From: Escherichia phage vB_EcoM_Schickermooser
Sequence record: NC_048196.1
Length of the DNA: 64,000 nt
Strand: one strand, 5' to 3'
A program made the translations under genes and the position numbers. Under the pieces are notes generated by a model. It did no database searches and was not told the DNA's origin. It was given only the letters and a program-made list of their open reading frames with translations. This document shows, piece after piece, positions 39,423 to 59,447 of the stretch. How positions within the stretch are numbered: the first letter of the stretch is position 1; each line of letters starts with the position of its first letter.

Positions 39423-39701
39423 TTAAAATGGTTCGTTAGTCTCCATCATATATTCTGCTTCTAGTTCTTCCATATGCTTTCTAAATTGGAAAGCAATTTC
39501 TGCTACAGTTACATTTAAATCTTTTTCAAAAACTTCTGTAGAGCCTTCATAAAAACGAATACCGTCAATTAAAAGCCCTCCGTGGTAATCCCAATCACTT
39601 TCACGAGAAAGCGGGTTAGGCTCTTCATAATAGTAATCCACCTCCACGACTAAAGCTTTCCCGTTACGAGTGGTGTATTCAAAATCAAAAGTGTTAATCA
39701 T
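39423..39701 (-). CDS. hypothetical protein
   Basis: 92 aa. Confidence 0.4.
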   Translation of the reverse strand: MINTFDFEYTTRNGKALVVEVDYYYEEPNPLSRESDWDYHGGLLIDGIRFYEGSTEVFEKDLNVTVAEIAFQFRKHMEELEAEYMMETNEPF

Positions 39702-40645
39702 TATAGCTCCTCAAATAAAAGTCTACGACGCTCATTCAACACATCAATGTGATAATGAGTCCTGACATACTTAGCTAATGCTAATCCTTTCTCCATGCAA
39801 ACATCGGGAGCACTTAATAAGTATTCCGTAATATCTTTCCACTCGGAAGGTGTTTCAGCAAAGAATAACAAATCTTTAAACTCTTGTGTATGATAATTCT
39901 CACGAGGAGAACAGATCAAAGGTAAACCCTTAGCACCTGCCTCAAGAATTTTAAGATTGCTTTTTGCATTATTAAACACGTTATCAATCAATGGCGCAAG
40001 ACTGATTTGATGACCATCGTAAGATTCCATGTAGTTGGCATATGGTCTTACACCTTCATAAACACAAGTTGGTGCTACATTTTCTCTGATTACAGACCAT
40101 TCACGACTACTTAAAACTTCAGAATCCCTACGAAAACCACATATTGTAAGATCTTTACCAAAATCGGGCAAGATAGCCAAATCTTGTTTATGTGTTTCAC
40201 TTCCAGCCCAGACTAATGGAGTTTTGGAGTAGCGATCACGGGTCAACACAAATTGACCTTCCTCGTAAGGAAGTCCATTAGGGATTATGTGCACATTATC
40301 ATTGTATTGTGAAAGTTCAACTTGCAAGGCAGGTGTCGTAGTTGTAACAAGATCACTGTGCTCTAAAAACCATTTTAAATGTTCACGAATACCTGATTCA
40401 AAAATACCTTCTAACATGTGTCCTTTTGGAATAACTAAAGAGTCATCCAAATCCATAACCATTTTAAAGCCTAGGTTTTTAAGGGCTAAAAAGCCCTCTT
40501 TACCTTTTGTTGGCACTCCGTTAAAAACGAAAACGTTGTGTTTAGGTTGTGAAGAGAACTGCCTTGAGTAAGGCAGCACTACCCTATGGAAATCGCAGAC
40601 ACTATAATTGATTCCGTTACGATTGTCAAGAATTATTTGTCCCAT
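39701..40645 (-). CDS. glycosyltransferase, GT-B fold (paralog 1)
   Basis: C-terminal KSNLKILEAGAKGLPLICS matches GT-B sugar-donor-binding motif; paralogous to next gene. Confidence 0.55.
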   Translation of the reverse strand: MGQIILDNRNGINYSVCDFHRVVLPYSRQFSSQPKHNVFVFNGVPTKGKEGFLALKNLGFKMVMDLDDSLVIPKGHMLEGIFESGIREHLKWFLEHSDLVTTTTPALQVELSQYNDNVHIIPNGLPYEEGQFVLTRDRYSKTPLVWAGSETHKQDLAILPDFGKDLTICGFRRDSEVLSSREWSVIRENVAPTCVYEGVRPYANYMESYDGHQISLAPLIDNVFNNAKSNLKILEAGAKGLPLICSPRENYHTQEFKDLLFFAETPSEWKDITEYLLSAPDVCMEKGLALAKYVRTHYHIDVLNERRRLLFEEL

Positions 40646-40652
40646 ACTTCAC

Positions 40653-41600
40653 CTACAAACTTTCAATAACCTGGCGTCGCAATTCGTTTGCATCTGCCAG
40701 ATTATAATGTGTTCGAACATGTTCCGCTAAGAACAAGCCGCGATCTTCCCGATAGTTCGGATTGCGAAGAAGCTTAACAATTTCGTAATGCCATTCTGCT
40801 TTATTCTCTGCATAAGCAACAGCGCGAGCATCTACAGGGTTAAAATAAGGTAATACCTTAGAACAAACAATCGGAATACCTTTTGCCCCAGCTTCAAGGA
40901 TTTTGAGATTACTTTTACAATTATTAAAATCATTATCTACCAAAGGAGCTATAGCAATAGCATGACTTTCGTAAACACTCATGTAATTATCTAAATCTTT
41001 TACAGCAGCTTTATATTTGGCATTTGGTAAATTTCTACGGATCTTAATCCACTCTTGCCCTGTGATACTCTGCGAAGCTTCATACCCCGCAATAGTAAGA
41101 AGTTCATCATCAAAAGTGTTAGAGACTAGTCGTAAATCAGGTTCATGACTAGCACCTCCAGCCCATACAATAGGGGTACCGGATGAACGGTCATTTGACA
41201 AAGTAAATTGTCCGCTATCAAAAGGAAGTGCATTTCGGATTACAACAACATTTCTATTTAAATGACGGATTTTATATGCCAAATATTCCGTAGTCACAAT
41301 GACCACATCAGCAAGCTTAACCATAGCCACAATAGCGTGAGTGTTTGACTCATATAAACTTGCTAAATAATGTTCTGGATTAAGTTGGTAGAAATCATCT
41401 AAATCTACAACAATCTTAACACCTTGACGTTTCAGGGACAGAACATATTCTGCACCTTTAGAATGAATACGGTTAAACACGACAACATCTTTCTTAGGCT
41501 GAAAATTATTGTTGTTAAATGGTATAACAATACGATGATAATCACAACCGCTGTGAGGTTTTGCATCAATTTTCAGTTTAGTCCATTTTTTATTTGACAT
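40653..41600 (-). CDS. glycosyltransferase, GT-B fold (paralog 2)
   Basis: KSNLKILEAGAKGIPIVCS motif; start moved to ATG 41600 (GAGGAGG RBS) to avoid 50-nt overlap. Confidence 0.55.
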   Translation of the reverse strand: MSNKKWTKLKIDAKPHSGCDYHRIVIPFNNNNFQPKKDVVVFNRIHSKGAEYVLSLKRQGVKIVVDLDDFYQLNPEHYLASLYESNTHAIVAMVKLADVVIVTTEYLAYKIRHLNRNVVVIRNALPFDSGQFTLSNDRSSGTPIVWAGGASHEPDLRLVSNTFDDELLTIAGYEASQSITGQEWIKIRRNLPNAKYKAAVKDLDNYMSVYESHAIAIAPLVDNDFNNCKSNLKILEAGAKGIPIVCSKVLPYFNPVDARAVAYAENKAEWHYEIVKLLRNPNYREDRGLFLAEHVRTHYNLADANELRRQVIESL

Positions 41601-42273
41601 GTGCCAGTGCCTCCTCATAAGAAATTCGGATTTTCCCATTTTTAATATCTTCTAAAGACGCTTTATATTCTTCCCAGTTAATGCCAATAGCAGCTTCTTT
41701 CTCTTCTTTTGTCAGGTTAGCAAAAGGCATAGGATTGTTTCCAAAAACATCGTCTGGGTGGATATAAGCCATGATACGAAGTGGACAAGGTATTGCCTGA
41801 ATACCCTGATTCAAACCAGCAGCTTTCAAACGGTGTACCCATTCAGCATCTTCAAAACCATAGCCGTGAGTGTAAGGGCGGAAATAACCCATCTTCTCAA
41901 CAACGGCACGAGAATACATTGCAAATTGACACATTGCAAGCTCCCAGAGAATAACTTCTCCTTTACTCCCAACAACTTTATCTTTGAAATACTCCGGCAT
42001 ACCAAAGAAATCCCATCCTCCAGAGACAGCTTGATCTACAAAATATGTTTCCCATCCCTCCATGATTGGGTAGCAATCGTCGTCAAAAATAAACCAATAA
42101 TCATAACCTTCTTCATAAAACTGGTGCATAAGTTCATTCCTGGCGTAAGCTACACCTTTACGATCTGGATCGTTGAATACTCGAAAATCTGCATGTGGAT
42201 CTGTTACAAGATAGTCTTTAAGTGGACGGACACCTACAGTGATAACACCCACTCCGATTTTAATATTTTCCAT
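41590..42273 (-). CDS. glycosyltransferase, GT-A fold (GT2-like)
   Basis: KGVAYARNELMHQFYEEGYDYWFIFDDDCYP resembles GT2 nucleotide-sugar binding region with DxD. Confidence 0.5.
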   Translation of the reverse strand: MENIKIGVGVITVGVRPLKDYLVTDPHADFRVFNDPDRKGVAYARNELMHQFYEEGYDYWFIFDDDCYPIMEGWETYFVDQAVSGGWDFFGMPEYFKDKVVGSKGEVILWELAMCQFAMYSRAVVEKMGYFRPYTHGYGFEDAEWVHRLKAAGLNQGIQAIPCPLRIMAYIHPDDVFGNNPMPFANLTKEEKEAAIGINWEEYKASLEDIKNGKIRISYEEALAHVK

Positions 42274-42281
42274 TTTCTCTC

Positions 42282-42845
42282 CTAGATAGTTTTACTGTGA
42301 TCGTGACAGTGTAATAAATGATGTATAGACCGTTGAGGATTTGTTTGACCTAATCTGTAAATGTGAAACAGATACATTCCCCGCATCAATCCTAACCTCT
42401 TTCCTTTTTCATGTAAAGTGCGAGAGAAAATTAAGTCGAATTGGATAGATTTTTCTTCGAAAGGAATTTCATTCCACAATGATTTTCTAAAAAGCAAAAA
42501 GAAACCTGCCAGAGGTGTTCCGAAAGGAACTTCTTCAACACTCACTTTATGATATTCTCTTGCAATCTTAGCATATTCTATATGGTTTAGAATGTCTGGA
42601 TCATCGTTAATTTGGTTAGAGAAAAGCTGATAACCACTACCTAACCTGTTACAAGTTGCACCTATTACATCAAAAGGCGGGTTTGACATAACAAGCTCTT
42701 CAAGCATAGATGGTTGATCAGGTAGGAGGAACATCGTATCGGTATCTCTTAAACACACCCAACTATCATCTGGAAGAACGGCAATAGCTTCATTGATAGC
42801 CTTGCCGATATTTCCTGTCAGATAGGGAGTAATATAATAAATCAT
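42282..42845 (-). CDS. putative glycosyltransferase-like protein (weak)
   Basis: DxD-like LRDTDTMF; strong RBS. Confidence 0.3.
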   Translation of the reverse strand: MIYYITPYLTGNIGKAINEAIAVLPDDSWVCLRDTDTMFLLPDQPSMLEELVMSNPPFDVIGATCNRLGSGYQLFSNQINDDPDILNHIEYAKIAREYHKVSVEEVPFGTPLAGFFLLFRKSLWNEIPFEEKSIQFDLIFSRTLHEKGKRLGLMRGMYLFHIYRLGQTNPQRSIHHLLHCHDHSKTI

Positions 42846-43546: not shown

Positions 43547-44068
43547 TTAACTCCCCTTTGGTAGATAGAAACCATGCACTTTATCTCGATAAACAAGACG
43601 CATATCACGCTCCCAGTGTGTCCTTATATTCCGTTTCTTGAAGTATAGAGCACCTTTAGTAACATCTAAAACAGACCGCAATTCAGGAAAATGTTTCTCT
43701 AAATAAAGTAAACGCTCCGCTATTGCTTTTGCTTCCTGCCACTTATCTTTCTCTGTCACGTTAAAAGTTTTCGCATATGAGAATTGCCCTTTCTGGAACA
43801 AGACTCCCTTGACTGTGTTAGGGAAGTAGGCATCATTTCTTCTGTTGATTACCACATTCCCAACGGCATTCATTCCTTTTTTACCCAGACCGCGACCTTC
43901 TGCGTAAATTGCACAAGCTAATAGAATTTTATCATTATATTGCTTTGTACATTTGTGAACTACTTTAGCGGTTTTTACGTTTGCAGCTTCGGCTTTCGCC
44001 ACAACAGGTGTAAATGTAAAAGCAGTTAAGGATAGTAACGCAACTGTTACAAAGTTTTTTATCAGCAA
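43547..44068 (-). CDS. cell wall hydrolase, SleB-like, with N-terminal signal peptide (candidate endolysin)
   Basis: Signal-like N-terminus (VTVALLSLTAFTFTPVVAKA); AIYAEGRG...GMNAVGNVVINRRN...GQFS matches SleB-like signature. Confidence 0.65.
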   Translation of the reverse strand: MLIKNFVTVALLSLTAFTFTPVVAKAEAANVKTAKVVHKCTKQYNDKILLACAIYAEGRGLGKKGMNAVGNVVINRRNDAYFPNTVKGVLFQKGQFSYAKTFNVTEKDKWQEAKAIAERLLYLEKHFPELRSVLDVTKGALYFKKRNIRTHWERDMRLVYRDKVHGFYLPKGS

Positions 44069-44100
44069 ATTTTGCCTCCTTTTTAAGTTAACGAACTTCT

Positions 44101-44129
44101 AGTATAACACGATAGAGGCTTTATTGCAA
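44101..44129 (-). promoter_or_regulatory. sigma70-type promoter (TTGCAA-N17-TATACT)
   Basis: On minus strand -35 TTGCAA (44129..44124), -10 TATACT (44106..44101); ~30 nt upstream of RBS/ATG at 44068. Confidence 0.5.
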
Positions 44130-44150
44130 GAGGGGGGATTTCTCCCCCTC
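44130..44150 (-). terminator. hairpin downstream of terD (weak terminator)
   Basis: GAGGGGGG-att-TCTCCCCCTC stem; weak U tract. Confidence 0.4.
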
Positions 44151-44168
44151 AAAATCATTTGTTAATTA

Positions 44169-44771
44169 TTATGGACATTCATACCATTCTTTTTTACCAC
44201 CGAAGGCCATCACCACATCGCAAATATCCAGACCAGCTTTACCTACACCATATGCTTTCAGCTTCCATTCTCCATCTTCACGAACCAGGGAAGCCACGTG
44301 GCAGATTGTGTTGCCAGCTACTTCAGGAGCCAGGAAGTCAAAATCCAGAATTTCCACATTACGCTCGGAGTCGAAGATTTTAAGCATACCTTCAGAAGCA
44401 TGACCAAAACGTTTCAGACCTGTATCATCATCAATAGTCAGAACAAAGGCAATCTCTTGTGCATCAGGAGAGATTTTAGCCAGAGTAATATCAATCTGCT
44501 CCATGCTGCCAGTTCCATCACGAACATCGTCACCAGCAAAGGTAGAACGTTCAGGATCAAACTTATTAGCATAGCAAACCAGATGACGTGCAGACAGCAT
44601 TTCAGGATTGCCAGCGGCATTGTGACGACAAACCAGTGCACTTACATCCAGATCCAGTTTAGAATCAGATTTCCAAGAGAATTCCAGGCGTAGTTCTTTC
44701 AGAGCCGGAGCAACTTTCTTCAGGGAAATTTTTTCGCTAGAGCCTTTTTTCAGGGAAATTTTATCAGTCAT
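44169..44771 (-). CDS. terD: TerD-family stress-response protein
   Basis: N-terminal ISLKKG...ISLKK, DLDVSALVC, and C-terminal EDGEWKLKAYGVGKAGL match TerD-domain signatures. Confidence 0.85.
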   Translation of the reverse strand: MTDKISLKKGSSEKISLKKVAPALKELRLEFSWKSDSKLDLDVSALVCRHNAAGNPEMLSARHLVCYANKFDPERSTFAGDDVRDGTGSMEQIDITLAKISPDAQEIAFVLTIDDDTGLKRFGHASEGMLKIFDSERNVEILDFDFLAPEVAGNTICHVASLVREDGEWKLKAYGVGKAGLDICDVVMAFGGKKEWYECP

Positions 44772-44786
44772 CTTTTGTCTCCTCTA

Positions 44787-45056
44787 TTATTTAAGTGTAA
44801 TACCAGTTACAGTCAATTCTACTTCCAAAAGCTTAGATGTGTTTTGGATTGCTACTAATTGTGCATGATGGTTTAGTTCTACAGCAGAATAATCATTTTC
44901 CCCATCATCTACTTTTAAATAAACAATTACTTCACTAAGGTCTAAACCATTTTCGTCAAATGCATTTTCATAGACGAAAGTATCTCCTACATCCAAATCT
45001 TTAATGGTAAGGCATCGTTTATTTACTTTTTGCTCATCAATTTCGAAGTTTAACAC
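44787..45056 (-). CDS. hypothetical protein, paralog B of 46078..46356
   Basis: Shares DLDVGDTFVYENAFDENGLD and EVELTVTGITLK with paralog A. Confidence 0.45.
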   Translation of the reverse strand: MLNFEIDEQKVNKRCLTIKDLDVGDTFVYENAFDENGLDLSEVIVYLKVDDGENDYSAVELNHHAQLVAIQNTSKLLEVELTVTGITLK

Positions 45057-45285
45057 TTCTTCCTCCTAATGTTATCTCCGGTTTGTATATACGAAGAATT
45101 ATAGCATTTTCATTTTCTTTGTCAACCCATTCTTCATAATCAGGCCATACATGAATCTCTACTCTACTTACAATATCTTCCATCCGCACAGTCCCAATGA
45201 AATATTCTTTGAGACTGCGCATAATGAAAGCTTCTCTCTCGCGCCAATAATTTTCTACGACTTGAGAGGCAAGCTCGTCGATCAT
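45037..45285 (-). CDS. hypothetical protein
   Basis: 82 aa. Confidence 0.35.
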   Translation of the reverse strand: MIDELASQVVENYWREREAFIMRSLKEYFIGTVRMEDIVSRVEIHVWPDYEEWVDKENENAIILRIYKPEITLGGRSVKLRN

Positions 45286-46076
45286 TTTTTAGCACCTACT
45301 TTAACAACCCACTCTCCGAACTCTTCAGATAAGAGTTTGTCATAAAGCTCTGAATCTGTCAAGTCTAAATCTTTAATGCCAATAAAACCAACATTGTCAT
45401 AAGCATTTGCCAGTTCTTTCAGGAAGCTGAACTTCTCATTACCAACGCCAACCATGAACCAATAGATAGGCTTATTCTTATTCTCTTCAATAAGACGACG
45501 AACAGCACTAGGATCACCATTCTCACCGTCTGTCTGGAAGAATACAACGCCAGGAGTAACATCAGCACCTGGTTCAGATACAGCTACAACTTTTTCACGC
45601 TCTACCGATACTGTTTCAGTTTTACCAAGCAGACGATTAAAGAAGCCTTTCTTTGGAGCCTCCTCTTGTACCACTTGTTTAGTGGTAACATATTTGGTAA
45701 CAGTGCCAAAATACTCATCGTAGATATCTGCCATTACAGGGGCGTAATTTGTTCCACCTCCGATACGAACATTACGCATACATTTACCAACGTAGTCATC
45801 GTAAACGTCTGCTGTTGCTGGAGTAAGCTCTTGAGAACTCGTATTGAAGGCCCACATGTCAATTTGTTCATTATCGTCGAACAGCATACCAAAAGGAAGC
45901 AGTTTACCTACAAAATCACTCACTACCCCACGAGTATATAGACCATGCATACTACCAGAAATATCTAGAGCACATGCTACACGAAGAACAATCTTACCTT
46001 CGTTCAGGTTCTTATTCTTTTTCAGAGAGAAAGCAAGGTTTTCTTGACGTTTTTTCAGGCTGATTTTCTCGGACAT
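45282..46076 (-). CDS. von Willebrand factor A domain protein (TerF/TerY-like)
   Basis: MIDAS motif DISGSM; N-terminal EKISLKK...SLKK resembles TerD leader. Confidence 0.6.
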   Translation of the reverse strand: MSEKISLKKRQENLAFSLKKNKNLNEGKIVLRVACALDISGSMHGLYTRGVVSDFVGKLLPFGMLFDDNEQIDMWAFNTSSQELTPATADVYDDYVGKCMRNVRIGGGTNYAPVMADIYDEYFGTVTKYVTTKQVVQEEAPKKGFFNRLLGKTETVSVEREKVVAVSEPGADVTPGVVFFQTDGENGDPSAVRRLIEENKNKPIYWFMVGVGNEKFSFLKELANAYDNVGFIGIKDLDLTDSELYDKLLSEEFGEWVVKVGAKK

Positions 46077-46077
46077 A

Positions 46078-46356
46078 TTATTTCTCCTTCTTAAGTGTAA
46101 TATTGGTAACTTCTAAATCTACTTCCACCATATTTGTATCTGGTGGGATGCAATGAGTATAGCCTCGTTGTGCTAGTGATCCATTAATACAGATCGCACT
46201 GTTTGTGGAATTTTTAATGAACACCAAGTTACGGTAGGTATCCAACCCTGCGTCTTCATAGGCATCATAATACATGAATGTGTCCCCTATGCCAAGGTCT
46301 TCGAAAGCAATAGGTAAATCCTGACACTTTTCTTCTTGAATATTGAATCTAAACAC
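46078..46356 (-). CDS. hypothetical protein, paralog A of 44787..45056
   Basis: GTG start at 46356 with GGAGG RBS gives 92 aa aligned with paralog B; track ATG 46422 would overlap upstream gene by 74 nt. Confidence 0.4.
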   Translation of the reverse strand: MFRFNIQEEKCQDLPIAFEDLGIGDTFMYYDAYEDAGLDTYRNLVFIKNSTNSAICINGSLAQRGYTHCIPPDTNMVEVDLEVTNITLKKEK

Positions 46357-46912
46357 GCATACCTCCTCTACCAATTTTGAAGCCCAAATCGTAAGCTTCC
46401 TTAGTGATCTTTTGTAACTCACTTATAGGAAGTGTTACAAGAGGATCATCTTCTTCAATTTCCATCTTGTCATCTTCTGTTTCAATGAGAGTATTATGCA
46501 CTTTGTGATAAGGGTTGTCAACACGTTTAAACTTATTCTTTTCTGTGCTGAAAAAACAATCTGGATCTTCTTCGCCATCACCCCAACCTTGGTTAGGATC
46601 TCCGTCAGATTGTTCTGTAGGGATTTCACCTGTAAAATACTCTTCCAGCACCATAGCGATACCGTCCCTTGGATTCGAGGAATGCATTAAATCACAAACC
46701 TTACCCCAATCCATAGCCCATTCGAACCGTTCACGAACGCCATTTTCATCCTCCTTTCCAGAGAAAACACAACCATAACTATCATAGTTGCCATACATCT
46801 CTTCAATAACAACACCATCCTTCAAAAGAAAGAGATAGCAAGGTGATCCGTCGAAAGAAGTAGAAAGGGCAGCTTTGCCCGATTCCTTACACAAAAAGCT
46901 AAAACAACCCAT
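46349..46912 (-). CDS. hypothetical acidic protein
   Basis: 187 aa, D/E-rich. Confidence 0.4.
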   Translation of the reverse strand: MGCFSFLCKESGKAALSTSFDGSPCYLFLLKDGVVIEEMYGNYDSYGCVFSGKEDENGVRERFEWAMDWGKVCDLMHSSNPRDGIAMVLEEYFTGEIPTEQSDGDPNQGWGDGEEDPDCFFSTEKNKFKRVDNPYHKVHNTLIETEDDKMEIEEDDPLVTLPISELQKITKEAYDLGFKIGRGGMRV

Positions 46913-47109
46913 TACAAACCCTCCTTCAGATTATCAAGAGCTACAGTGGTTTCACAAAATTCTCCATACGCTTTATGATGTTCTAGAAAAGCTTCAGGTC
47001 CACCCCAATCATTATCTTGTGTATTCCAACCATCAATAAAAGCATCTTCAATGATTGTGATCAGTTCCTGTCGAGTCAACGTAATGGTATCAGGTTTTGG
47101 ATTATGCAT
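46912..47109 (-). CDS. hypothetical small acidic protein
   Basis: 65 aa. Confidence 0.35.
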   Translation of the reverse strand: MHNPKPDTITLTRQELITIIEDAFIDGWNTQDNDWGGPEAFLEHHKAYGEFCETTVALDNLKEGL

Positions 47110-47275
47110 CTTCTTTCTCCTCTAAAATATGAAACCCATAGCTACAATAGTCCTGAAAGGTTTCGTGTGCAAGATCTTCTATATCCTCTTGAGACATATC
47201 ATCTTCAATTTCGATATCCACAACCTCATTGCATCCACACCAAGCAGTTTCAATATTCACTCGTAAAGTTTTCAT
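47102..47275 (-). CDS. hypothetical small acidic protein (57 aa, not in ORF track)
   Basis: ATG overlaps upstream stop (ATGA); very acidic. Confidence 0.35.
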   Translation of the reverse strand: MKTLRVNIETAWCGCNEVVDIEIEDDMSQEDIEDLAHETFQDYCSYGFHILEEKEDA

Positions 47276-47469
47276 TCTTCTTCCTCATTGAAGTCAATAT
47301 CTGCAAGGAGTTGAAATTTACGGAAGTTACGACAACCTTCATAAATATAACAATCACGACAAACTGCTAGAACACTTGGGGGATATATGCCTCCCATCGG
47401 TGCGAATCGTTTTTCGTCATCATAACGGACACCAATGTCTTCATCAATTATATAGATACGGATTCTCAT
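47272..47469 (-). CDS. hypothetical small Cys-containing protein
   Basis: 65 aa. Confidence 0.35.
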   Translation of the reverse strand: MRIRIYIIDEDIGVRYDDEKRFAPMGGIYPPSVLAVCRDCYIYEGCRNFRKFQLLADIDFNEEEE

Positions 47470-48578
47470 TTACCAAGCCCTCGTTTCACAGCAGCTACCA
47501 TCCCGTCTTCCAGAGATTGAACTTCATTAATATAATCAACACGAGCAGCACGGGCTTCCGTATTGATGCGGTTAGTTTCTTCCAACATCTTAACCAAGTT
47601 TTCCTGATCGTGACGCAGAGTTTCAATATCCAACACTTGACGGTTAGCCAGTGCTGCTGCTTCGATCTGATTCTGTGTGGCAAGATCGCTACCCAGTTTA
47701 ATTGCCAGGTTAAATTCATCAAGAACGTTATTCTGCGTCTCTGCTGCTTTCATTTGACGTAAGCTCTCGATATACATTGAGAAGTTAGCAGAGTAAGCAG
47801 GAATAACATTATTTACTATGTTACGCGCAGATCGCATTAAGCTTGCAGAAACTTTTTGCATACCTTGCACACGTGGTCCCATTTGGACACACAGTAGGCG
47901 CAATGCTTTTAAATCGGCAATACGAATCTCCAGAAGATCCAAAGTATCTCGGATCACTTGTCGCTGTTCTACTGCATCTTCTGGAAGAGCAGCCAAAGCT
48001 TGTTCTTCTTTTTCATAGGTTGCTGTTAGAAGCTGCATATCTCGGTTCAAACTTGCAGCATATTGTCCAATAGCTTGATGCAGTTTTTCAAGATATACCA
48101 AGGAATCTTCTTCTTTGCGAATATCCATTTGAAGGTTCTTTACCAACTCTTCAATACGGTTATTAACATTATCAAACTCCCCAAACAGGTCTTCTTTCAT
48201 ACCCATAACTTTTTTAATGAGTTTAGTAATACCTTTGCTTTGTTTAATAGAGTTTGGATCAAGTTGTTTTGCCTGTTTAATCAAAGCTGTGAGTCGTTCA
48301 CTCATCTGATCGCCTTGATTACTACGTTGATGTTTTAATACCTCGGCATTCAAGGAACGCAAGGTTGTCCCTGCCTCTGCCCCGATCTCTTCGATCTCTT
48401 GTCGGGTCATAGAAGGCAAAACTGGGACTTCTTGCGGTGCGGCTGGTGCATAAACAGGACTGGCATCTAATACGCTTGGAGCGAATACAGATTTACTTGC
48501 ATCTGTTGTTGCAGTGAATACACTCATTTCAGACTTCTTCTGACCACCAGTAGCTGCTTTTAAAAACGGACTTGTCAT
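47466..48578 (-). CDS. TelA-like (toxic anion resistance family) coiled-coil protein, tentative
   Basis: 370 aa, predominantly helical/coiled-coil, size and context (between terC and terD) consistent with TelA/KlaA family; not motif-verified. Confidence 0.4.
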   Translation of the reverse strand: MTSPFLKAATGGQKKSEMSVFTATTDASKSVFAPSVLDASPVYAPAAPQEVPVLPSMTRQEIEEIGAEAGTTLRSLNAEVLKHQRSNQGDQMSERLTALIKQAKQLDPNSIKQSKGITKLIKKVMGMKEDLFGEFDNVNNRIEELVKNLQMDIRKEEDSLVYLEKLHQAIGQYAASLNRDMQLLTATYEKEEQALAALPEDAVEQRQVIRDTLDLLEIRIADLKALRLLCVQMGPRVQGMQKVSASLMRSARNIVNNVIPAYSANFSMYIESLRQMKAAETQNNVLDEFNLAIKLGSDLATQNQIEAAALANRQVLDIETLRHDQENLVKMLEETNRINTEARAARVDYINEVQSLEDGMVAAVKRGLGK

Positions 48579-49165
48579 TCTTCATTCTCCTCTTCTGCAT
48601 CTCTTATGTATGGTGAAACACCGTATTCTTTAGCTACTTTAACCCAATCGTCCCATTTATACAACCATAATTTTCCTTCTGTTCCTTCTTTATCTGATTT
48701 TAACCACATATTAGGTTGCTTACCTGGATACATGCGATTAGGTTTACGATTATACCCTCTAACACATCTTGTCGCAAACCTATCCACCAAAACAAGAACA
48801 TATTTATATTCATGGTTCAACGGCTCTTTGGAAGTAGCTTTAGGGTTTGCCCCTAATTCTGCTGCCAGTTTTTGCCAATGAGCACCGTGCCGACTAAACT
48901 TACCCATACAACCATCAATAGCATGAGCAATTTCGTGCTTCATTGTATCCACGATCATATCTCTTGTAGAGTTCTTATGCAAGTGCCAATTTACAACAAC
49001 AATTTTATCTCGGTAGTTGCACCAACCGAAAGAGTTATTCACTTTGTTTCTAACGCAAGCTTTATATCCTGCTTCACGTAACATGTTGTAGTAAACAGGA
49101 AAATCTTCTTTTATTTCCTGCATCACTTCCCACCACAAGAGTTGCAAGTCTCTCTCGGTATACAT
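48575..49165 (-). CDS. SprT-like zinc metallopeptidase (HExxH)
   Basis: MKHEIAHAIDGCMGKFSRHGAHWQKLAAELG contains HExxH followed by HG..W. Confidence 0.55.
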   Translation of the reverse strand: MYTERDLQLLWWEVMQEIKEDFPVYYNMLREAGYKACVRNKVNNSFGWCNYRDKIVVVNWHLHKNSTRDMIVDTMKHEIAHAIDGCMGKFSRHGAHWQKLAAELGANPKATSKEPLNHEYKYVLVLVDRFATRCVRGYNRKPNRMYPGKQPNMWLKSDKEGTEGKLWLYKWDDWVKVAKEYGVSPYIRDAEEENEE

Positions 49166-49168
49166 AAC

Positions 49169-49762
49169 TTACACCTTAAAAGTGAAATGCGTGGTCGTGG
49201 CTTCAAAATCAGGGCCAGATAAACGTGCACTGAAATCTGAAATATTTGTAATTAAAAAGCTTTTATGCATACCCAACACAGCCACGCTTTCAATATCTTC
49301 TACTAACATTTCAATCATGTTAGAAACATGGCTGAACGTAGTGTTTTGTTTTTTGATGGTGTAGAAAGAAAGATTCCCACCTGCTGTATAAGATACTTCT
49401 TCAAAATCTTTAATCGTATACTGTGTCCCATCAGTAAAGAAAATGGTAGCTTTATTAGTAGCACGTTTCTTGTTTTTTGGTCCTTTTTTACGTTTACTGC
49501 GAGTAGGAAAACCATTTGGGAATACCGTAGCTACAAATTCTTCAGGAGAAACCTCCTTACCGAAATCATAACCATAAGAAACAGCATCTATAAACTCATC
49601 GTCCTCATTTTTAAAATAATGGAAATAGGGCCAATTTGAAAGATTATCAAGCATCTTATGCTCGTCCACAGCAGAGAATGTATCCCTCAAAGCGCGTGTG
49701 ATTTGCAAAGCATTAGGCAACCTTTTAACACCTACGATGGAAGTACGAATAGAAATTGTCAT
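49169..49762 (-). CDS. hypothetical protein
   Basis: 197 aa. Confidence 0.4.
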   Translation of the reverse strand: MTISIRTSIVGVKRLPNALQITRALRDTFSAVDEHKMLDNLSNWPYFHYFKNEDDEFIDAVSYGYDFGKEVSPEEFVATVFPNGFPTRSKRKKGPKNKKRATNKATIFFTDGTQYTIKDFEEVSYTAGGNLSFYTIKKQNTTFSHVSNMIEMLVEDIESVAVLGMHKSFLITNISDFSARLSGPDFEATTTHFTFKV

Positions 49763-49776
49763 TGTTTTTCTCCTTA

Positions 49777-50214
49777 TTAACGTCGCTTGCTACGAGATGA
49801 ACTCTTTTTACTTAAAGGGCTATTGTAAGATTTACGAGTTGTATAGCTACTATTTGTTTTAAAAGTTTGTCTCGGCTTTTCATAAGTTTTTATCTCTTGT
49901 TTAGGCTTACTATAAAAATTAGTTTTCGGTTTAGGTGTGTTATAATGTTTATTAATAATCGTTCTGTTATCGTTATAATCCCCGCCGCTACGATTACTAC
50001 TACCGCTCATCATATGTCCTAACAACATACCTGTAGCAAACTCACCAACACCGCTACTACTAGAACCGCCACCATTGTTGATAATAGTTGTATCTCCGTC
50101 AGATCCTTGTTGAGCGTATTGTTGAGGAGGTTGTTGATATTGTGTAGGATTTGTTTCATCCTCGCAAGCTGTTAAAAAGATACAACCAATTAAAATCAGG
50201 GCTAGTTTTTTCAT
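49777..50214 (-). CDS. lipoprotein (Gly/Ser-rich, glycine-zipper-like)
   Basis: Start at ATG 50214 (GAGGAA RBS): MKKLALILIGCIFLTAC lipobox; GGGSSSSGVGEFATGMLLGHMMSG. Confidence 0.55.
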   Translation of the reverse strand: MKKLALILIGCIFLTACEDETNPTQYQQPPQQYAQQGSDGDTTIINNGGGSSSSGVGEFATGMLLGHMMSGSSNRSGGDYNDNRTIINKHYNTPKPKTNFYSKPKQEIKTYEKPRQTFKTNSSYTTRKSYNSPLSKKSSSRSKRR

Positions 50215-50401
50215 ATTTGCTTTCCTCGTTTTGACTATTAATACATCTGTGTTTGAAATCTCCAGAGAAGCAATAAAGCTGCTCTCCATCTCGGTATAAA
50301 CTCACTTTACTGCCGTTGATTACGCTTGTCAATACAAAAATTACAACAAACAACCCTATTGCAAAACAAATATTTTCAAACACAACCAACAAGTATTTCA
50401 T
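50156..50401 (-). CDS. small N-terminally membrane-anchored protein overlapping lipoprotein start
   Basis: ATG overlaps upstream stop (ATGA); N-terminal TM (LLVVFENICFAIGLFVVIFVL); overlaps lipoprotein gene by 59 nt in another frame. Confidence 0.45.
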   Translation of the reverse strand: MKYLLVVFENICFAIGLFVVIFVLTSVINGSKVSLYRDGEQLYCFSGDFKHRCINSQNEESKYEKTSPDFNWLYLFNSLRG

Positions 50402-50748
50402 TTTAAAAATACCTCATCATCAGTTTCATTATCCCAGAAGAACAAATCCCAACCATTAGGATCATTCCACTTGGCGGTTGGAGAAGTCCAAATTTGTTCG
50501 ATATCAATATTCAAAACTTCGCCGTTTCGTTTTGAAACAGCCTTGGTTAATTCCCAACGAGATACAGGTTCTACCTCTCCTGAACCACTCCCACAACAAG
50601 CTACTACATTAGGAGGAAGGTTAATTGGATCTTTGGTCACAATCATAACGCTTACCCCAGGGTAAACTTTTGAAAGATAATCTGAAACGTAATCAACATC
50701 ACCAGGTAAATCCCAAACAAGTTTTTGAATTTCATCGAAATTGCTCAT
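50398..50748 (-). CDS. hypothetical protein
   Basis: 116 aa; GGAGAG RBS. Confidence 0.4.
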   Translation of the reverse strand: MSNFDEIQKLVWDLPGDVDYVSDYLSKVYPGVSVMIVTKDPINLPPNVVACCGSGSGEVEPVSRWELTKAVSKRNGEVLNIDIEQIWTSPTAKWNDPNGWDLFFWDNETDDEVFLK

Positions 50749-50766
50749 AAGTCTCTCCTATAAAAT

Positions 50767-50784
50767 AGCCTCCCGAAGGAGGCT
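50767..50784 (-). terminator. terminator/attenuator hairpin after terC
   Basis: AGCCTCC-CGAA-GGAGGCT followed on minus strand by ATTTTAT. Confidence 0.5.
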
Positions 50785-50790
50785 CATCTA

Positions 50791-51765
50791 TTAAACAGCA
50801 GCTTGTTCTTTTTCAGGGAAGATAAAGCTTGCAATAACACCAAGAGCTAATGTGCCTAGAACAATCATCAGACTTACGTTAGGGGAAATATCATGCGGAA
50901 GGAATGACCACTTGGCATGAAGTGTTTCACCGAACGGGTGATACATAAGTTTAGCACCAACAAACACCAGAACCACAGCAACAGCTTTCTCTAAGTGAAC
51001 CAAATATTTCACAGCTACACTTAACACAAAGAAAAGTGCACGTAAACCAAGAACAGCCATCAGCATTGCAGAATAAACTAGCAGAGGTTCTTGTGTCACA
51101 CCGATCACAGCCGGAACTGAATCAAAAGAGAAGACAATATCTGTAAGCTCAATAACAAACACACAAAGAAGAGCAGGAGTTGCATATTTAATACCATTCT
51201 TAATGGTAATGAACTTTTCACCATCCAGTGCATTGTGCACAGGCAGAACTTTACCTACTAAACGAACAGCCCAATGCTTAGAGTAATCAATATCCTCTTC
51301 TTCGTCACAACCTTTGATGATAGCCACGGCAGACCAAGCTACAATCAAACCGAACAACACTTGGACCGACCAATGAAGGTTAAACAAAGCGGTCCCTGCT
51401 GCAACAAAAATACCTCGGAAAACAATGGCTCCTGCAATCCCCCAAAGTAAAATCTTATGTTGGAGATGTGTGCTCTTAATTCCAAAGCTTGCAAAAATTG
51501 CCATGAACACCATCAGGTTATCTACAGAAAGACTCTTTTCCAACACATAGCCGCTTAGGAAAAGCGCGGCAAACTCTTTACCATGTTCTACCCAAATGAA
51601 TGCGTAATATCCTAAAGCTAAAGCAATCCAAAAAACAGACCAAAGCAAAGCAGATTTAATTCCAATTTCTTTATTCTCTTTATGACCAAAGAAATCGATA
51701 CCAATAGACAATGCTAAAATACCAACTAAAACAACTACATCAATAATTGGGAAACCAAGTTGCAT
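50791..51765 (-). CDS. terC: TerC-family integral membrane protein
   Basis: Multi-pass membrane protein with EKSLSVDN and FSFDSVPAV motifs characteristic of TerC family. Confidence 0.85.
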   Translation of the reverse strand: MQLGFPIIDVVVLVGILALSIGIDFFGHKENKEIGIKSALLWSVFWIALALGYYAFIWVEHGKEFAALFLSGYVLEKSLSVDNLMVFMAIFASFGIKSTHLQHKILLWGIAGAIVFRGIFVAAGTALFNLHWSVQVLFGLIVAWSAVAIIKGCDEEEDIDYSKHWAVRLVGKVLPVHNALDGEKFITIKNGIKYATPALLCVFVIELTDIVFSFDSVPAVIGVTQEPLLVYSAMLMAVLGLRALFFVLSVAVKYLVHLEKAVAVVLVFVGAKLMYHPFGETLHAKWSFLPHDISPNVSLMIVLGTLALGVIASFIFPEKEQAAV

Positions 51766-51844
51766 TCTTTTCTCCTCTCTTTGCGGGGAACTATTCCCCG
51801 CTTCATGTGATATATCTTACTCTTTTTAAGAACTATGTCAACAC

Positions 51845-52066
51845 TTATTTTGTTGAATGAGAGGAAAAGATTCCTCGTAATACAGCCAGAATAAACGAAA
51901 CACAAACCACGGTCCAGAAGGTTACTGGAACAGTGATATCTGCATGACCCATAACTTCAGCAACATAGTTGTAAGCCAGCAACAGTAACCAAGCTGGAAT
52001 CAAACTAAGCATAAAAGCAATAACAAAAAAGCTTACCACTGCAACAATACCTGCAAAAACACCCAT
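51845..52066 (-). CDS. small membrane protein (2 predicted TM segments)
   Basis: 73 aa; two hydrophobic helices. Confidence 0.45.
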   Translation of the reverse strand: MGVFAGIVAVVSFFVIAFMLSLIPAWLLLLAYNYVAEVMGHADITVPVTFWTVVCVSFILAVLRGIFSSHSTK

Positions 52067-52078
52067 ACTAATCTCCTC

Positions 52079-52564
52079 TTAAAGTTTATAAATAGTCACA
52101 TCGTGACCAGCTTTTACTAAAGTTTCTTTGATCATGACTTCAATGATAGCCCAATTACCTCCAGCATGACCTGCACCTATCATAGGTAGACCAATCTTAT
52201 GTGCTGGCTGATCTCCTTTATCGTAATTGTGTAAGTCCATTGCCATAGCTGCAAGAGCATCATACAGCGCATCATAATCTAGTTGACGACCTTTACTATT
52301 GTATCCATAACGATACTGTCCATAAAGGTTGTATACCATAGGGTTAGGATAATCTTCTGGTTCCCCTAAACTAAAAGAACCAAGCTTTTTCTGGTTTCCT
52401 GCTCCTGTAGCTAAATCTGCTTCGTATGCATATGGAAACGCATATTTTATTTGTGGGGCAATACCTGCCCCCATATTACACATACAGTTGCAACAATGAG
52501 CAATAACAGTTACTTCACCTGTTTTAGCGGCATCAATAAGATTACCTGTTTTCATTTTAAGCAT
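52079..52564 (-). CDS. macrodomain protein (TARG1/OARD1/DarG-like)
   Basis: VIAHCCNCMCNMGAGIA and PMIGAGHAGGNW...VTIYKL resemble TARG1-type macrodomain motifs; start at ATG 52564 with AAGGAG RBS. Confidence 0.65.
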   Translation of the reverse strand: MLKMKTGNLIDAAKTGEVTVIAHCCNCMCNMGAGIAPQIKYAFPYAYEADLATGAGNQKKLGSFSLGEPEDYPNPMVYNLYGQYRYGYNSKGRQLDYDALYDALAAMAMDLHNYDKGDQPAHKIGLPMIGAGHAGGNWAIIEVMIKETLVKAGHDVTIYKL

Positions 52565-52577
52565 TTTTAGCTCCTTA

Positions 52578-53405
52578 TTACAGAATGTGTTGTTTTGTGT
52601 AACGATCCAAGAATTCAAAGTTTTCAGCATACTTTGCAATTCGATTGTAGCCTTCAGCTAAACAGCCGAAGAAAAGTTGTTCCACATAGTAGTGTGGCAA
52701 TTGGCTAAGAATGATTTTGAAGTCTTCATGATTTTGGCCCATAAGATACTTAATAGGACGAACAAGGCACTGTGCATCACGTTCTTCATTAATCATTTTA
52801 ACAAACGCTTCTGGTGTATTAATGTAGTTAAAATTCAGTTTAGCTTCAGTATCTGCTTGATTACCTTCGTATTTTGCAAAATACAAGAAGTAAACATCAT
52901 TTTTAACTTGATTTTCATCAAGAATCTCAATCAGTTTGTCTTCATGCGTTCCGGTGATATTTACATCATCAATGAACACCAACTTCTTATCACCCCAGAA
53001 TTCTTTGTTGCAGTAGAATGTATCCCCATCAATAAGTTTCTTACGACTAGCTTTATCCAAGAAGCCATAATCGTTAATATAACTAACTTTACGATGAATA
53101 ATATCCAGTTCTGCTGAACGACCTTGATCATATTGTGCTTGCAACATATTAAAGTAATTAATAAAATGATCTGTCATCATTGTTGCAGCATTATGCACAT
53201 GGTTATAAGGAGAAGGAATGATAACAAATTGTTCCCCAATATGTTTCATTGCCACTTGAGCAAAAAACTGAAGTGCCAATTCTTTACCCATACGACGCGC
53301 AGCTTGGTTACTGCCAAATTTCAATTTTGAATAATCTTTGATATCAAAAGTAGCAGTTTCCAGGTCATCAAATTTATTTGCAAAAATTTGAGTTTGATTA
53401 CGCAT
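52578..53405 (-). CDS. phosphoribosyltransferase-type (PRT type I fold) protein
   Basis: KLVFIDDVNITGTH matches PRPP-binding motif of type I PRTases/PRPP synthetases. Confidence 0.5.
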   Translation of the reverse strand: MRNQTQIFANKFDDLETATFDIKDYSKLKFGSNQAARRMGKELALQFFAQVAMKHIGEQFVIIPSPYNHVHNAATMMTDHFINYFNMLQAQYDQGRSAELDIIHRKVSYINDYGFLDKASRKKLIDGDTFYCNKEFWGDKKLVFIDDVNITGTHEDKLIEILDENQVKNDVYFLYFAKYEGNQADTEAKLNFNYINTPEAFVKMINEERDAQCLVRPIKYLMGQNHEDFKIILSQLPHYYVEQLFFGCLAEGYNRIAKYAENFEFLDRYTKQHIL

Positions 53406-54054
53406 TTACAATTTCTCCTCTTTTAAGTTTCTCTAGTAAGTCGTTAGGGTTCTTAATATGACAGAAGTTAATCCCTATGTCAACACATTTTCCATCAAAT
53501 TCTTCGCTGTCCCCAACATGTAAAATCTCTTCAGCCTTCAAAGGAATGCTTGAATATGTGGCGGTCCTAACAAAGAATCTAGGATCTGGTTTACACAACA
53601 GATGTTCGTCTGAAAAATGCATAAATTCAAAACAATTCCAACTGTCAAACATACAAGCACGACGCAAAATATCCCCAGATATGAAATTAGTATTGCTTTT
53701 AATACTAAGATCATATTTACCAGACAAGTATAGCAAACAAACTGGCAAATCTAAAGCAATATGTGGAGGAAATTTAAGAAACCATTGTTCACACTCAAAA
53801 CGCATTTGTGCAGATTCTACAGGGGTTAAACCTATCTTTCTTCCCAACATGTTCCATGCATATGCTACGCCTTCTGCACACCCATTTAGTGCAGCATTAT
53901 CCATAATTTCTTTGGCATCTTTATATGCTTCTTTTGCGGCACGTTCAGACATTCTACCATATGTGGCAATAGTGTGCGTACGTGCATCTGCATAGTTTTG
54001 ATTGGCAGAAATAAGAGTATTCCATACATCAAAAGAGATATGTTTTATTGTCAT
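53398..54054 (-). CDS. HAD-superfamily hydrolase
   Basis: Motif I-like ISFDVWNTL and motif IV-like HVGDSEEFD. Confidence 0.5.
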   Translation of the reverse strand: MTIKHISFDVWNTLISANQNYADARTHTIATYGRMSERAAKEAYKDAKEIMDNAALNGCAEGVAYAWNMLGRKIGLTPVESAQMRFECEQWFLKFPPHIALDLPVCLLYLSGKYDLSIKSNTNFISGDILRRACMFDSWNCFEFMHFSDEHLLCKPDPRFFVRTATYSSIPLKAEEILHVGDSEEFDGKCVDIGINFCHIKNPNDLLEKLKRGEIVNA

Positions 54055-54055
54055 A

Positions 54056-54661
54056 TTAGGCCCACCATGCATCAAGATTTAAGTTACTGTCTACCACAAC
54101 TTGCTCTATGTGGTAGCCTTTTATCTGTATCCCACTGTTCAAGAGCATACCATATGCCTCATTGAAACGCAACTTATCTTCTGCGGAATATAAGCGAGCA
54201 TTGTAAAATCGGTAATCAAGTTCTTCAGCATTAGAAGAAATACGGAAGAAGTTTGTTTCTACTTCAGGATCACTTGCTGAAGTTTTAATGTGAACTTCTC
54301 CGTAATTTTCTTTGCTTAGATCCATGAAAAGAACACAGGCAACATGTTTGAACATTCGTTCTAGTTTGTAACGAACAACATTGAAACCTGCATTCTCAAG
54401 TTTTTCTACACATTGCAACATTAACGTAGTGTCGAGATCGCTTTGATACTTTGTTAACATACGATCACGTTGAGACTTTGTATCCCGATGTAAATCAATT
54501 GTTGTGCATTTGGCACCAATGATCTTAGCTGCTTTCATCAACTCTTCAGAACTAACGTTAGATAAAGTAAGATGAAAATGGGCTTTCCACACTTTTTGAG
54601 TAGGGACACCAAAAGATTTATCCCCACTATTCGGCATGTTAACTACTACACTATGTTGCAT
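54056..54661 (-). CDS. hypothetical protein (one HxT motif; possible 2H-phosphoesterase relative, weak)
   Basis: AHFHLTL motif; second HxT motif not found. Confidence 0.3.
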   Translation of the reverse strand: MQHSVVVNMPNSGDKSFGVPTQKVWKAHFHLTLSNVSSEELMKAAKIIGAKCTTIDLHRDTKSQRDRMLTKYQSDLDTTLMLQCVEKLENAGFNVVRYKLERMFKHVACVLFMDLSKENYGEVHIKTSASDPEVETNFFRISSNAEELDYRFYNARLYSAEDKLRFNEAYGMLLNSGIQIKGYHIEQVVVDSNLNLDAWWA

Positions 54662-54676
54662 TACTTATCTCCTCAC

Positions 54677-54868
54677 TTAAAATGGAAGTCTTTGAAGTTC
54701 ATCTCCTCCGATATCAAGTAATTTAGCAACATCTCGATCAGAAAGCAACTCTTTTCTTTGTAAAATATCCACAAGGGTTGCAAGAATCTCCTTAACGTCT
54801 CGATCACTGTTCTTCAAAAGTTCTCCCGCTGTTCCTACCTTGTCTCCTACAGCAAAGTATGTAACCAT
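54677..54868 (-). CDS. hypothetical small protein
   Basis: ATG at 54868 with AGGAGG RBS. Confidence 0.4.
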   Translation of the reverse strand: MVTYFAVGDKVGTAGELLKNSDRDVKEILATLVDILQRKELLSDRDVAKLLDIGGDELQRLPF

Positions 54869-54881
54869 ACAACCTCCTACG

Positions 54882-55352
54882 CTAATCTGATTGCCAACCA
54901 CTCGCCGTTTTGGTCCATAATCTTTGATTATCTGATCCTCTGAAAGGTTTTGTGGTTGGATTGTTTATTTCATACTTTCCGTCTACAATAATGTCAACAA
55001 GATTTTTAATATACAAAGGCACTTCCTCAAAAGTATATCCTGTATACACCATTATATCTTTGCTTGACCCATAAACGTCTCTAACCTTTTCTATAAGGTT
55101 TTTAACATTGTAAATATTCTGCGGATCTAATGGTTCTCCTCCTAAAATTGTTAAACCTTTTACAAACGGTCTTGACAAATCTTTTAAAACTTGTTCTACA
55201 TTTTCGTTAGTGAACGGTTTCCCATAAGAATAAGACCAGGCTTTCTGGTTAAAACAGCCACGACAACCGTGGCTACAACCACTAACCCAGAGGGAGCACC
55301 TAACTCCCTCACCATTAATAAGATCTACAGGTTCATATCCTGCAAAATTCAA
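54882..55352 (-). CDS. nrdG: anaerobic ribonucleotide reductase activating protein (radical SAM)
   Basis: CSHGCRGC (CxxxCxxC) near N-terminus; 156 aa; directly downstream of nrdD. Confidence 0.8.
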   Translation of the reverse strand: MNFAGYEPVDLINGEGVRCSLWVSGCSHGCRGCFNQKAWSYSYGKPFTNENVEQVLKDLSRPFVKGLTILGGEPLDPQNIYNVKNLIEKVRDVYGSSKDIMVYTGYTFEEVPLYIKNLVDIIVDGKYEINNPTTKPFRGSDNQRLWTKTASGWQSD

Positions 55353-59199: not shown

Positions 59200-59447
59200 G
59201 ATCTTCCTCCTGTGCGGAAAGCGCGTTTAGTAATGTTGGACATAATGATTAAATCTTGTAAAGTCATATCTGGGAACTGTTGTTCTAAAACTCCCTCAAC
59301 AGCACCTATAATATCTGATAATTCAACAAGTTGCATTATTTTGCAATCCTGTTCAACAGCATCAAAAAGTTCTTCTACTTCCTCTTTAATCTTTTCTATG
59401 CTGCCATAAGGTTGTTTCTTAATGTCTGTTATGTGATACCCCGCCAT
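59196..59447 (-). CDS. MazG-like nucleotide pyrophosphohydrolase (tentative)
   Basis: 83 aa helical protein with EEVEEL...E..D acidic motifs reminiscent of MazG/HisE fold. Confidence 0.35.
   Translation of the reverse strand: MAGYHITDIKKQPYGSIEKIKEEVEELFDAVEQDCKIMQLVELSDIIGAVEGVLEQQFPDMTLQDLIIMSNITKRAFRTGGRS

Follow-up and report, generated by a model that had tools for sequence, protein, structure and literature searches.

A 64,000-nucleotide stretch of the genome of Escherichia phage vB_EcoM_Schickermooser (record NC_048196.1; hereafter the window) carries an abbreviated Ter system, a gene set known in bacteria from tellurite-resistance loci. Throughout the Stephanstirmvirinae, the E. coli myophages that resemble phAPEC8 and phi92, the system is present as a fixed accessory module. 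Its core consists of TerC, TelA, a von Willebrand factor A (vWA) protein of the TerF type and one TerD, accompanied by small membrane proteins and a lipoprotein. The original prediction had read the block at 44169-51765 as a phage-borne, abbreviated Ter set among phage-specific small genes, and this reading is supported wherever it could be tested. The four Ter genes stand as described, but the upstream end was cut off, so that the co-conserved PRTase_3, HAD and macro genes were missed.

The question of what Ter proteins do dates from the 1970s-90s and arose when one and the same gene cluster was found to confer resistance to tellurite, inhibition of phages and resistance to colicins. Bacterial ter loci are said, after work by Whelan in 1995, to give both phage inhibition and colicin resistance. 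The presence of a Ter set in phages is not new, as it is already known in Phapecoctavirus and many other phages. The 2018 genome paper on phage ZCKP1 reported four tellurite-resistance-related genes and suggested that they protect from superinfection and colicins (PMC6141743), four-gene sets are also described in Pseudomonas phage PhiPsa374 and Klebsiella phage PhiKp34 (PMC9796965, PMC8386662), and Iyer et al. 2021 described, for jumbo “and certain other related smaller tailed phages”, Ter systems to which they ascribed a part in the competition with superinfecting phages (PMC7824862). Hence, the functions offered in the original prediction (superinfection exclusion, host takeover or counter-defence) match published proposals (PMC7824862, PMC6141743), and only its sense of novelty was overstated. 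It was right that the phage version lacks functional characterization, given that literature searches returned no experimental work on any phage-encoded Ter set.

What we add is a probable full extent for the module, the conservation of manganese-export residues in a TerC that has no riboswitch, and the exchange of TerC cassettes across genera. A virulent phage with a minimal conserved Ter set (one each of TerD, TerC, TelA and vWA plus an enzyme pair, all of them deletable) is a convenient model. The value of the locus therefore lies in the experiments that it makes possible and not in the presence of the genes; it makes the function testable and does not itself give the answer.

The Ter genes and their conservation among phages

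All four families are encoded far above the curated Pfam cut-offs, and all genes of the block are co-oriented on the minus strand, as are all other window features given by coordinates below. TerD (44169-44771, 200 amino acids (aa)) matches PF02342 with an E value of 3e-28 (98.9 bits, cut-off 25.3); among structures in the Protein Data Bank (PDB) it is closest to 2kxt, the TerD of K. pneumoniae (1.5e-15, phmmer), followed by 3ibz (3e-14). The vWA-TerF-like protein (45282-46076, 264 aa) matches PF10138 (3e-37, 129 bits, cut-off 29.4). TelA (47466-48578, 370 aa), a tentative call in the original prediction, is now firm, with PF05816 covering residues 59-361 of 370 (3e-33, 116 bits, cut-off 30) and a match at 2e-139 to phrog_5890, annotated “tellurite resistance” and placed by PHROGs in its moron/auxiliary metabolic gene category. 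TerC (50791-51765, 324 aa) matches PF03741 (5e-40, 138 bits, cut-off 27.8) and phrog_7180. A PDB sequence search gave no significant match for vWA, TelA, TerC or PRTase_3. Every motif on which the families had first been recognized (DLDVSALVC, GEWKLKAYGVGKAGL, EKSLSVDN, FSFDSVPAV, DISGSM and the ISLKK leader) occurs in the translations. In the vWA protein the metal-ion-dependent adhesion site (MIDAS) is complete (D38-x-S40-x-S42, T109, D183) and unchanged in an alignment of five phage lineages. Its N-terminus carries a TerD-like strand motif (I5, L7, K9, L18, K20, corresponding to the ISLKK leader) that is invariant in the same number of lineages.

The block 44169-51765 matches about 60 deposited phage genomes over its full length at 97-98% identity, including Escherichia phages KKP 3954, phAPEC8, ESCO13 and anhysbys and Klebsiella phage ZCKP1. 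Each of them is a myophage of about 150 kb in the genus Phapecoctavirus, subfamily Stephanstirmvirinae, and by these matches the source phage is a Phapecoctavirus itself (phAPEC8-like, ~150 kb). About 60 Phapecoctavirus genomes, ZCKP1 and phAPEC8 among them, encode a TerD that does not differ from that of the window (100% identity). The flanks of the block are likewise syntenic in these genomes. On the 3' side follow, on the minus strand and in this order, genes for a SleB-like cell-wall hydrolase, four glycosyltransferase-like proteins, a primase-helicase and a family A DNA polymerase, and the genes on the 5' side encode NrdG, NrdD and a UvrD-like helicase. GC content is even throughout the region, and near 31 kb the change of coding strand coincides with a reversal of the GC skew. 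Contamination by host or plasmid ter DNA, which the original prediction had named as a way in which it could fail, is excluded because the extended block 44169-54075 has zero megablast matches in 72,556 plasmids and 5,426 complete E. coli genomes and the TerC gene has zero blastn matches in E. coli; with about 60 independent phage genomes showing the same flanks, and with uniform GC, we give a mis-assembly artefact, in favour of which nothing was found, practically no chance.

The module extends beyond the genus. In phi92, which belongs to Justusliebigvirus, it is syntenic in the order HAD-PRTase-macro-p73-TerC-p81-lipoprotein-p197 (part)-TelA-p65a-p187-phrog_11278-vWA-TerD-extra ~200-aa open reading frame (ORF)-hydrolase. 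Identity of the window proteins to their phi92 counterparts is 81% for TerD, 79% for TelA, 71% for TerC, 67% for vWA, 65% for PRTase_3 and 47% for both HAD and macro. Related phages thus keep the block, as the original prediction had proposed to check: phAPEC8, ZCKP1, ESCO13 and phi92 have the same genes, with the order kept in phi92. The two hairpins that had been taken to bracket the block both exist, but only one of them lies at its edge. The Ter transcription block ends at a GC-rich hairpin just 3' of the TerD stop codon (44130-44150; -14.4 kcal/mol, z -2.2, without a T-run), beyond which lies a promoter-like site (44129-44101) for the SleB-like hydrolase gene. The other (50767-50784) lies within the block and parts TerC from the downstream genes.

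The genes upstream of TerC are co-oriented with, and conserved alongside, the four Ter genes. PRTase_3 (52578-53405) is a ComF-like type I phosphoribosyltransferase (PF15610, 1.5e-41) with an intact phosphoribosyl pyrophosphate (PRPP) loop, VFIDDVNITGTH; its fold is nearest to ComF, and fold matches do not allow its substrate to be inferred. Its gene overlaps that of a HAD-superfamily hydrolase (53398-54054; NCBIfam HAD-IA, sub-threshold). In the phage collection we found 144 records for TerD, 173 for TerC and 155 for PRTase_3, all with matches spanning at least 80% of the query, and the phage groups with TerD and those with PRTase_3 nearly coincide. Two unrelated phage-like metagenome contigs (L005 and L009, 350 kb and 198 kb) have the order TelA-vWA-(unknowns)-TerC-HAD-PRTase_3-TerD. 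The same six families thus recur, with HAD and PRTase_3 placed between TerC and TerD. Caulobacter phage CcrColossus has a compact TelA-vWA-TerC-TerD operon without HAD and PRTase_3. The pair (52578-54054) therefore probably, although not certainly, belongs to the module; we stop at probable because it also occurs without Ter neighbours. Membership of the macro gene, found beside PRTase_3 at the same position in phi92, is uncertain.

Compared with the phage systems described by Iyer et al. 2021 in Acinetobacter phage ME3 and Caulobacter jumbo phages, the window shares TerD, TerC, the TerF-type vWA protein and TelA, and, like their “relatively complete” phage versions, it also has PRTase and HAD enzymes. 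This genome, at 150 kb, is not that of a jumbo phage and fits their “smaller tailed phages”. Whereas the CcrColossus operon is compact, the Ter genes of the window occupy about 10 kb and are interspersed with many small phage ORFs. The bacterial terZABCDEF/telAB loci (IncHI2 plasmid R478, the EHEC O-island and K. pneumoniae virulence plasmids) likewise share TerC, TerD, TelA and the TerF-type vWA protein. However, they have five TerD paralogues (TerZ, A, D, E and F) where the window has one and no TerB was found. In addition, the window vWA protein bears a TerD-like leader of about 20 residues instead of a full TerD domain, the window TerD has a degenerate Ca2+ motif and low identity to 2kxt, the window TerC is Alx-like, and the DNA shows no similarity to E. 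coli genomes or plasmids.

TerC and its exchange between phages

TerC belongs to the Alx subfamily, scoring 319 bits for NCBIfam TIGR03718 (TerC/Alx family; cut-off 246) and aligning with E. coli K-12 Alx at 33% identity over 306 aa (BLASTP, E 1e-47). Export of Mn2+ by Alx needs the acidic transmembrane residues E86, D92, E213, D216 and D222 (PMC10197570). These align exactly with E76, D82, E206, D209 and D215 of the window TerC and are kept in both phage TerC alleles, so that by alignment the residues for Alx-type cation export are intact.

The likeness to Alx, in TIGR03718 membership and in the five acidic residues, does not extend to regulation. The host alx gene is under Mn2+/pH riboswitch control, but Rfam gave no match to the yybP-ykoY Mn2+ riboswitch, be it across the window at the gathering threshold or, with the limit relaxed to E<=1, across 43900-54900. 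A riboswitch 5' of TerC was accordingly rejected, with Rfam empty and the leader holding a simple hairpin only. Unlike alx, phage TerC sits among Ter genes and is preceded by a sigma-70-like promoter, TTGACA-16-TAAGAT (51841-51814), and a 5'-untranslated region (5'-UTR) hairpin (51800-51782; -14.6 kcal/mol, z -4.4) that abuts the TerC ribosome-binding site, the whole leader spanning 51782-51841. Directly 3' of the gene, the hairpin at 50767-50784 resembles an intrinsic terminator (-17 kcal/mol, z -4.2, then AUUUUAU). TerC forms its own predicted promoter-hairpin-terminator unit, and phi92 has all three elements (hairpins at 5965-5992 and 6995-7012 of locus L002). Because both stems show compensatory base changes relative to phi92, with two compensatory pairs in the 5'-UTR hairpin, the comparison points to selection on the RNA hairpins that flank TerC.

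The window TerC allele is of the phAPEC8 type, whereas tuntematon and some other Phapecoctavirus carry the phi92 type. We compared the window with one Phapecoctavirus, tuntematon (locus L015), and found the DNA to be at least 95% identical save for three sharp-edged patches of 45-82% identity, which lie within HAD (~54030-53480), macro (~52460-52160) and TerC (~51690-50850). Between the two phages TerD is 100% identical, TelA 99.5%, PRTase_3 98.5% and vWA 98%. The tuntematon TerC shares 95% identity with the phi92 protein and only 73% with that of the window, and because it is nearer to the allele of the other genus, we conclude that TerC alleles move between genera, by recombination in the conserved gene ends and flanks. 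On this comparison TerC, HAD and macro behave as swapped alleles, and TerD, TelA, vWA and PRTase_3 are near-invariant. Exchange of this kind would be expected of components that face a variable partner, and by itself is a weak hint of such a partner here.

Phages of Cronobacter, Proteus, Pectobacterium, Vibrio and Aeromonas (~73-92 kb; hits H131-H138) have TerC proteins 46-55% identical to that of the window. A phage-specific TerC clade is suggested, because the identity among phages is 46-55% compared with 33% to E. coli Alx.

Proposed role of the module

We tentatively favour, at somewhat less than an even chance, a role in superinfection exclusion or envelope protection, exerted by early, cation-dependent conditioning of the inner membrane. 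In this proposal, host RNA polymerase would transcribe the block early in infection, TerC would enter the inner membrane and move Mn2+ or another divalent cation, and TelA, the vWA protein (via its MIDAS) and TerD would assemble in a metal-dependent manner on the cytoplasmic face of that membrane. The PRTase/HAD pair would start from PRPP and a base and supply the assembly with a ligand that resembles a nucleotide or nucleoside. Throughout the latent period, the sturdier inner membrane would then be harder to breach for later phages and for colicins and would better withstand other assaults on the membrane. Bacterial ter loci, with their phenotypes of phage inhibition and colicin resistance, would offer a parallel to such an outcome.

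The family identities, the intact MIDAS, cation-export and PRPP-loop residues, the gene order kept across two genera and the recurrence of the six families all speak for this proposal. In the roles assigned by Iyer et al. 2021, PRTase and HAD form a biosynthetic arm, TerB and TerD bind ligands, TerC is the membrane component, and TelA and TerF-type vWA form sub-membrane structures (PMC7824862). In K. pneumoniae, loss of terC enlarged the plaques of eight phages and made the cells sensitive to Te, Zn and Mn (PMC12054061). An envelope focus is supported by the membrane proteins p73 and p81 and the lipoprotein, all conserved in phi92, and the exchange of TerC, HAD and macro alleles against near-identical flanks fits a conflict locus. 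We infer early expression because of sigma-70 consensus sites and the position of the block among the PolA, primase-helicase and NrdDG genes. One such site, 5' of p89 and TerD (45125-45098), is a perfect consensus with extended -10 (12/12 match).

Several observations weigh against this role. Promoter-like sites are not enriched, with 52 found compared with 45.6 +/- 6.8 in shuffled sequence. TerD retains DLD, but its second Ca2+ motif reads GDDVR-DGTGSMEQ where the canonical form is GDNxTGxGxGDDE; throughout the phAPEC8-like and phi92-like phages it is one position shorter and has lost two acidic residues, whereas the other phage TerDs compared are canonical or nearly so: GDNLTGDGAGDDE (L004), GDELTGDTAGDDE (L009) and GDNRTGNAPGIDE (L005). 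The Pfam scan of ORFs found a single TerD-domain ORF and no set of TerZ/A/D/E/F paralogues, and no Pfam match to TerB occurred among 40 minus-strand ORFs within 33707-63211, a scan that left out NrdG, NrdD, 59196-59447, 63208-63519 and the rest of the genome. TerB and the several TerD paralogues of resistance-conferring ter operons are thus absent from what was scanned. PADLOC, TerY-P included, gave no match for TerD, vWA, TelA, TerC, PRTase_3 or HAD. In KKP 3954 the vWA gene (locus L001, 15114-15910) differs only by a 2-bp (TA) insertion that shifts the frame and leaves it annotated as two ORFs, which hints at either a sequencing error or a vWA protein that is dispensable in culture.

The enzyme arm raises two further difficulties for the proposed role. 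The HAD protein keeps motifs II-IV (S127, K162, G188-D189...D194), but its motif I is SFDVWNTL, with the nucleophilic Asp present and the acid at D+2 replaced by Trp, a replacement that is invariant in all seven sequences compared (phages and Rhizobium plasmids). Because the D+2 general acid is Trp, the protein may be no ordinary phosphatase and may follow an atypical chemistry. Moreover, the overlapping HAD/PRTase_3 pair occurs without Ter genes in Xanthomonas phage XaC1, Rhizobium phages, Rhizobium/Sinorhizobium plasmids and contig L007, and in phages this Ter-free pair usually adjoins nucleotide-metabolism genes.

The pair, together with macro, could therefore be a separate unit of nucleotide metabolism or salvage, lying between the Ter genes and NrdDG, with the Ter module proper reduced to the four genes first listed. 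We consider this possible but on the whole unlikely, and it would be compatible with any of the roles discussed here. It accounts well for the pairs that stand alone beside genes for thymidine kinase, PurA-like protein, DHFR, cytidyltransferase or RNA ligase (XaC1, Rhizobium phages and metagenome contigs) or alone on Rhizobium plasmids, and for the four-gene operon of CcrColossus. It accounts less well for the insertion of the pair between TerC and TerD in L005 and L009 and for the nearly identical phage groups of TerD and PRTase_3, and in published comparisons PRTases and HAD enzymes are treated as parts of Ter systems (PMC7824862). We found neither an ATP-grasp nor a C-C lyase partner for the pair. 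Kinship of PRTase_3 with the PRTases of classical enterobacterial ter loci was rejected, as tblastn against plasmids matched only those of Rhizobium, Sinorhizobium and Hymenobacter. Two of these plasmids were inspected, and neither has Ter genes annotated beside its HAD/PRTase pair, as read from PLSDB gene tables that are incomplete.

A more specific form of envelope protection, which we hold to be doubtful, is a self-contained, swappable “membrane-immunity” device. Here a nucleotide-like ligand made by the ComF-like PRTase and the atypical HAD, together with divalent cations moved by TerC, would drive a TelA/vWA/TerD assembly beneath the inner membrane that blocks DNA entry by later phages or the action of pore-formers, and TerC, HAD and macro would be swapped between phage genera to outpace rivals. 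If this were true, no system would be better suited to working out what Ter proteins do than a virulent phage with so compact and deletable a copy.

The module might instead serve metal homeostasis, a reading that we consider unlikely. TerC would export Mn2+ or another cation or metalate secreted proteins, and TerD, vWA and TelA would buffer or sense cations. The benefit would be better replication or lysis, for example by metal-loading the exported SleB-like hydrolase or the lipoprotein, and competitors would be irrelevant. In keeping with this, TerC falls in the Alx subfamily with the five Mn-export residues kept, and TerC-family proteins act in Mn2+ export (PMC10197570) or in the metalation of exoenzymes during Sec export (PMC10550928). 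The terC gene gives resistance to Zn and Mn (PMC12054061), and an exported cell-wall hydrolase is encoded directly downstream of the block. Judged from TerC matches, phage GAP52 and phages of Proteus, Vibrio and Pectobacterium are candidate TerC-only phages, which would make TerC useful alone. However, this reading gives no reason for the joint occurrence of TerC with TelA, vWA, TerD and the enzyme pair in unrelated phages or for the swapping of TerC alleles, and phage TerC lacks the Mn riboswitch by which the host tunes alx.

Counter-defence seems to us improbable. The module would shield the cell from abortive-infection effectors that depolarize or permeabilize the inner membrane, or from Ter-type inhibition by the host, and would thus let the phage complete its cycle. 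It is membrane-directed, its neighbours include candidate anti-defence genes (a DarG-like macrodomain and an AbiEi-like protein), and TerC, HAD and macro are mosaic alleles. However, the Ter proteins match no known anti-defence family, and conservation across phages of Caulobacter, Brevundimonas and E. coli argues against a narrow, system-specific inhibitor. Membership in a catalogued defence system was likewise rejected, PADLOC being without a match to the Ter proteins.

Accessory genes and neighbours

Relative to phi92, the window has additional ORFs for an SprT-like protein, p82, p89 and p116. These, together with p57, p65b and the AbiEi-like gene, are best classed as accessories and not as core, because they are absent from phi92. 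The small ORF p89 (44787-45056), a phrog_11278 paralogue, and p82 (45037-45285, phrog_22387) lie between TerD and vWA and are not found at the corresponding position in phi92. On the other side of vWA lies the phrog_11278 protein (46078-46356), which also adjoins the vWA gene in phi92 (63% identity). The two phrog_11278 proteins that flank vWA in the window are 31% identical (E 1e-13), and phi92 has a single copy. The gene for p187 (46349-46912), with an invariant MGCxSxxC N-terminus, is widespread among phages and not Ter-specific. Three small ORFs follow (p65a, p57 and p65b, 46912-47469), of which p57 has a weak DUF7167 match and p65a alone is kept in phi92.

Upstream of TelA, the HExxH peptidase noted in the original prediction is an SprT-like zincin (48575-49165; PF10263, 4e-9, motif HEIAH), whose stop codon overlaps the TelA start and whose gene is present in Phapecoctavirus and not in phi92. 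The interval 49169-50748 holds p197, the predicted lipoprotein (~49777-50214), in which the lipobox LTAC was found, the membrane protein p81 (50156-50401) and p116. Phage phi92 keeps the lipoprotein, p81 and part of p197. Upstream of TerC lies the small membrane protein p73 (51845-52066), with 60% identity in phi92.

The macro-domain protein (52079-52552) is DarG-like. Its Pfam Macro match is sub-cut-off (4e-4), and its matches to NCBIfam DarG (2e-8) and PADLOC DarG (2e-9) are both far under the full-length cut-offs. Its best matches are to the macrodomain of the antitoxin DarG, a DNA ADP-ribosyl glycohydrolase, and it could possibly counter DarT-type ADP-ribosylation of DNA. Beyond HAD, a 201-aa protein (54056-54661) matches the PADLOC AbiEi antitoxin models over near full length (9e-13 and 8e-12) and has no Pfam match; it might be an antitoxin mimic directed against AbiE abortive infection. 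In phi92 a gene for an AAA-type ATPase stands in its place.

The four glycosyltransferase-like genes (39701-42845) form a run that separates the primase-helicase gene from the lysis/Ter region. One of their products has a weak, sub-cut-off match to a TET-associated glycosyltransferase (E 1.3e-3), and the phi92 annotation also shows four such genes here.

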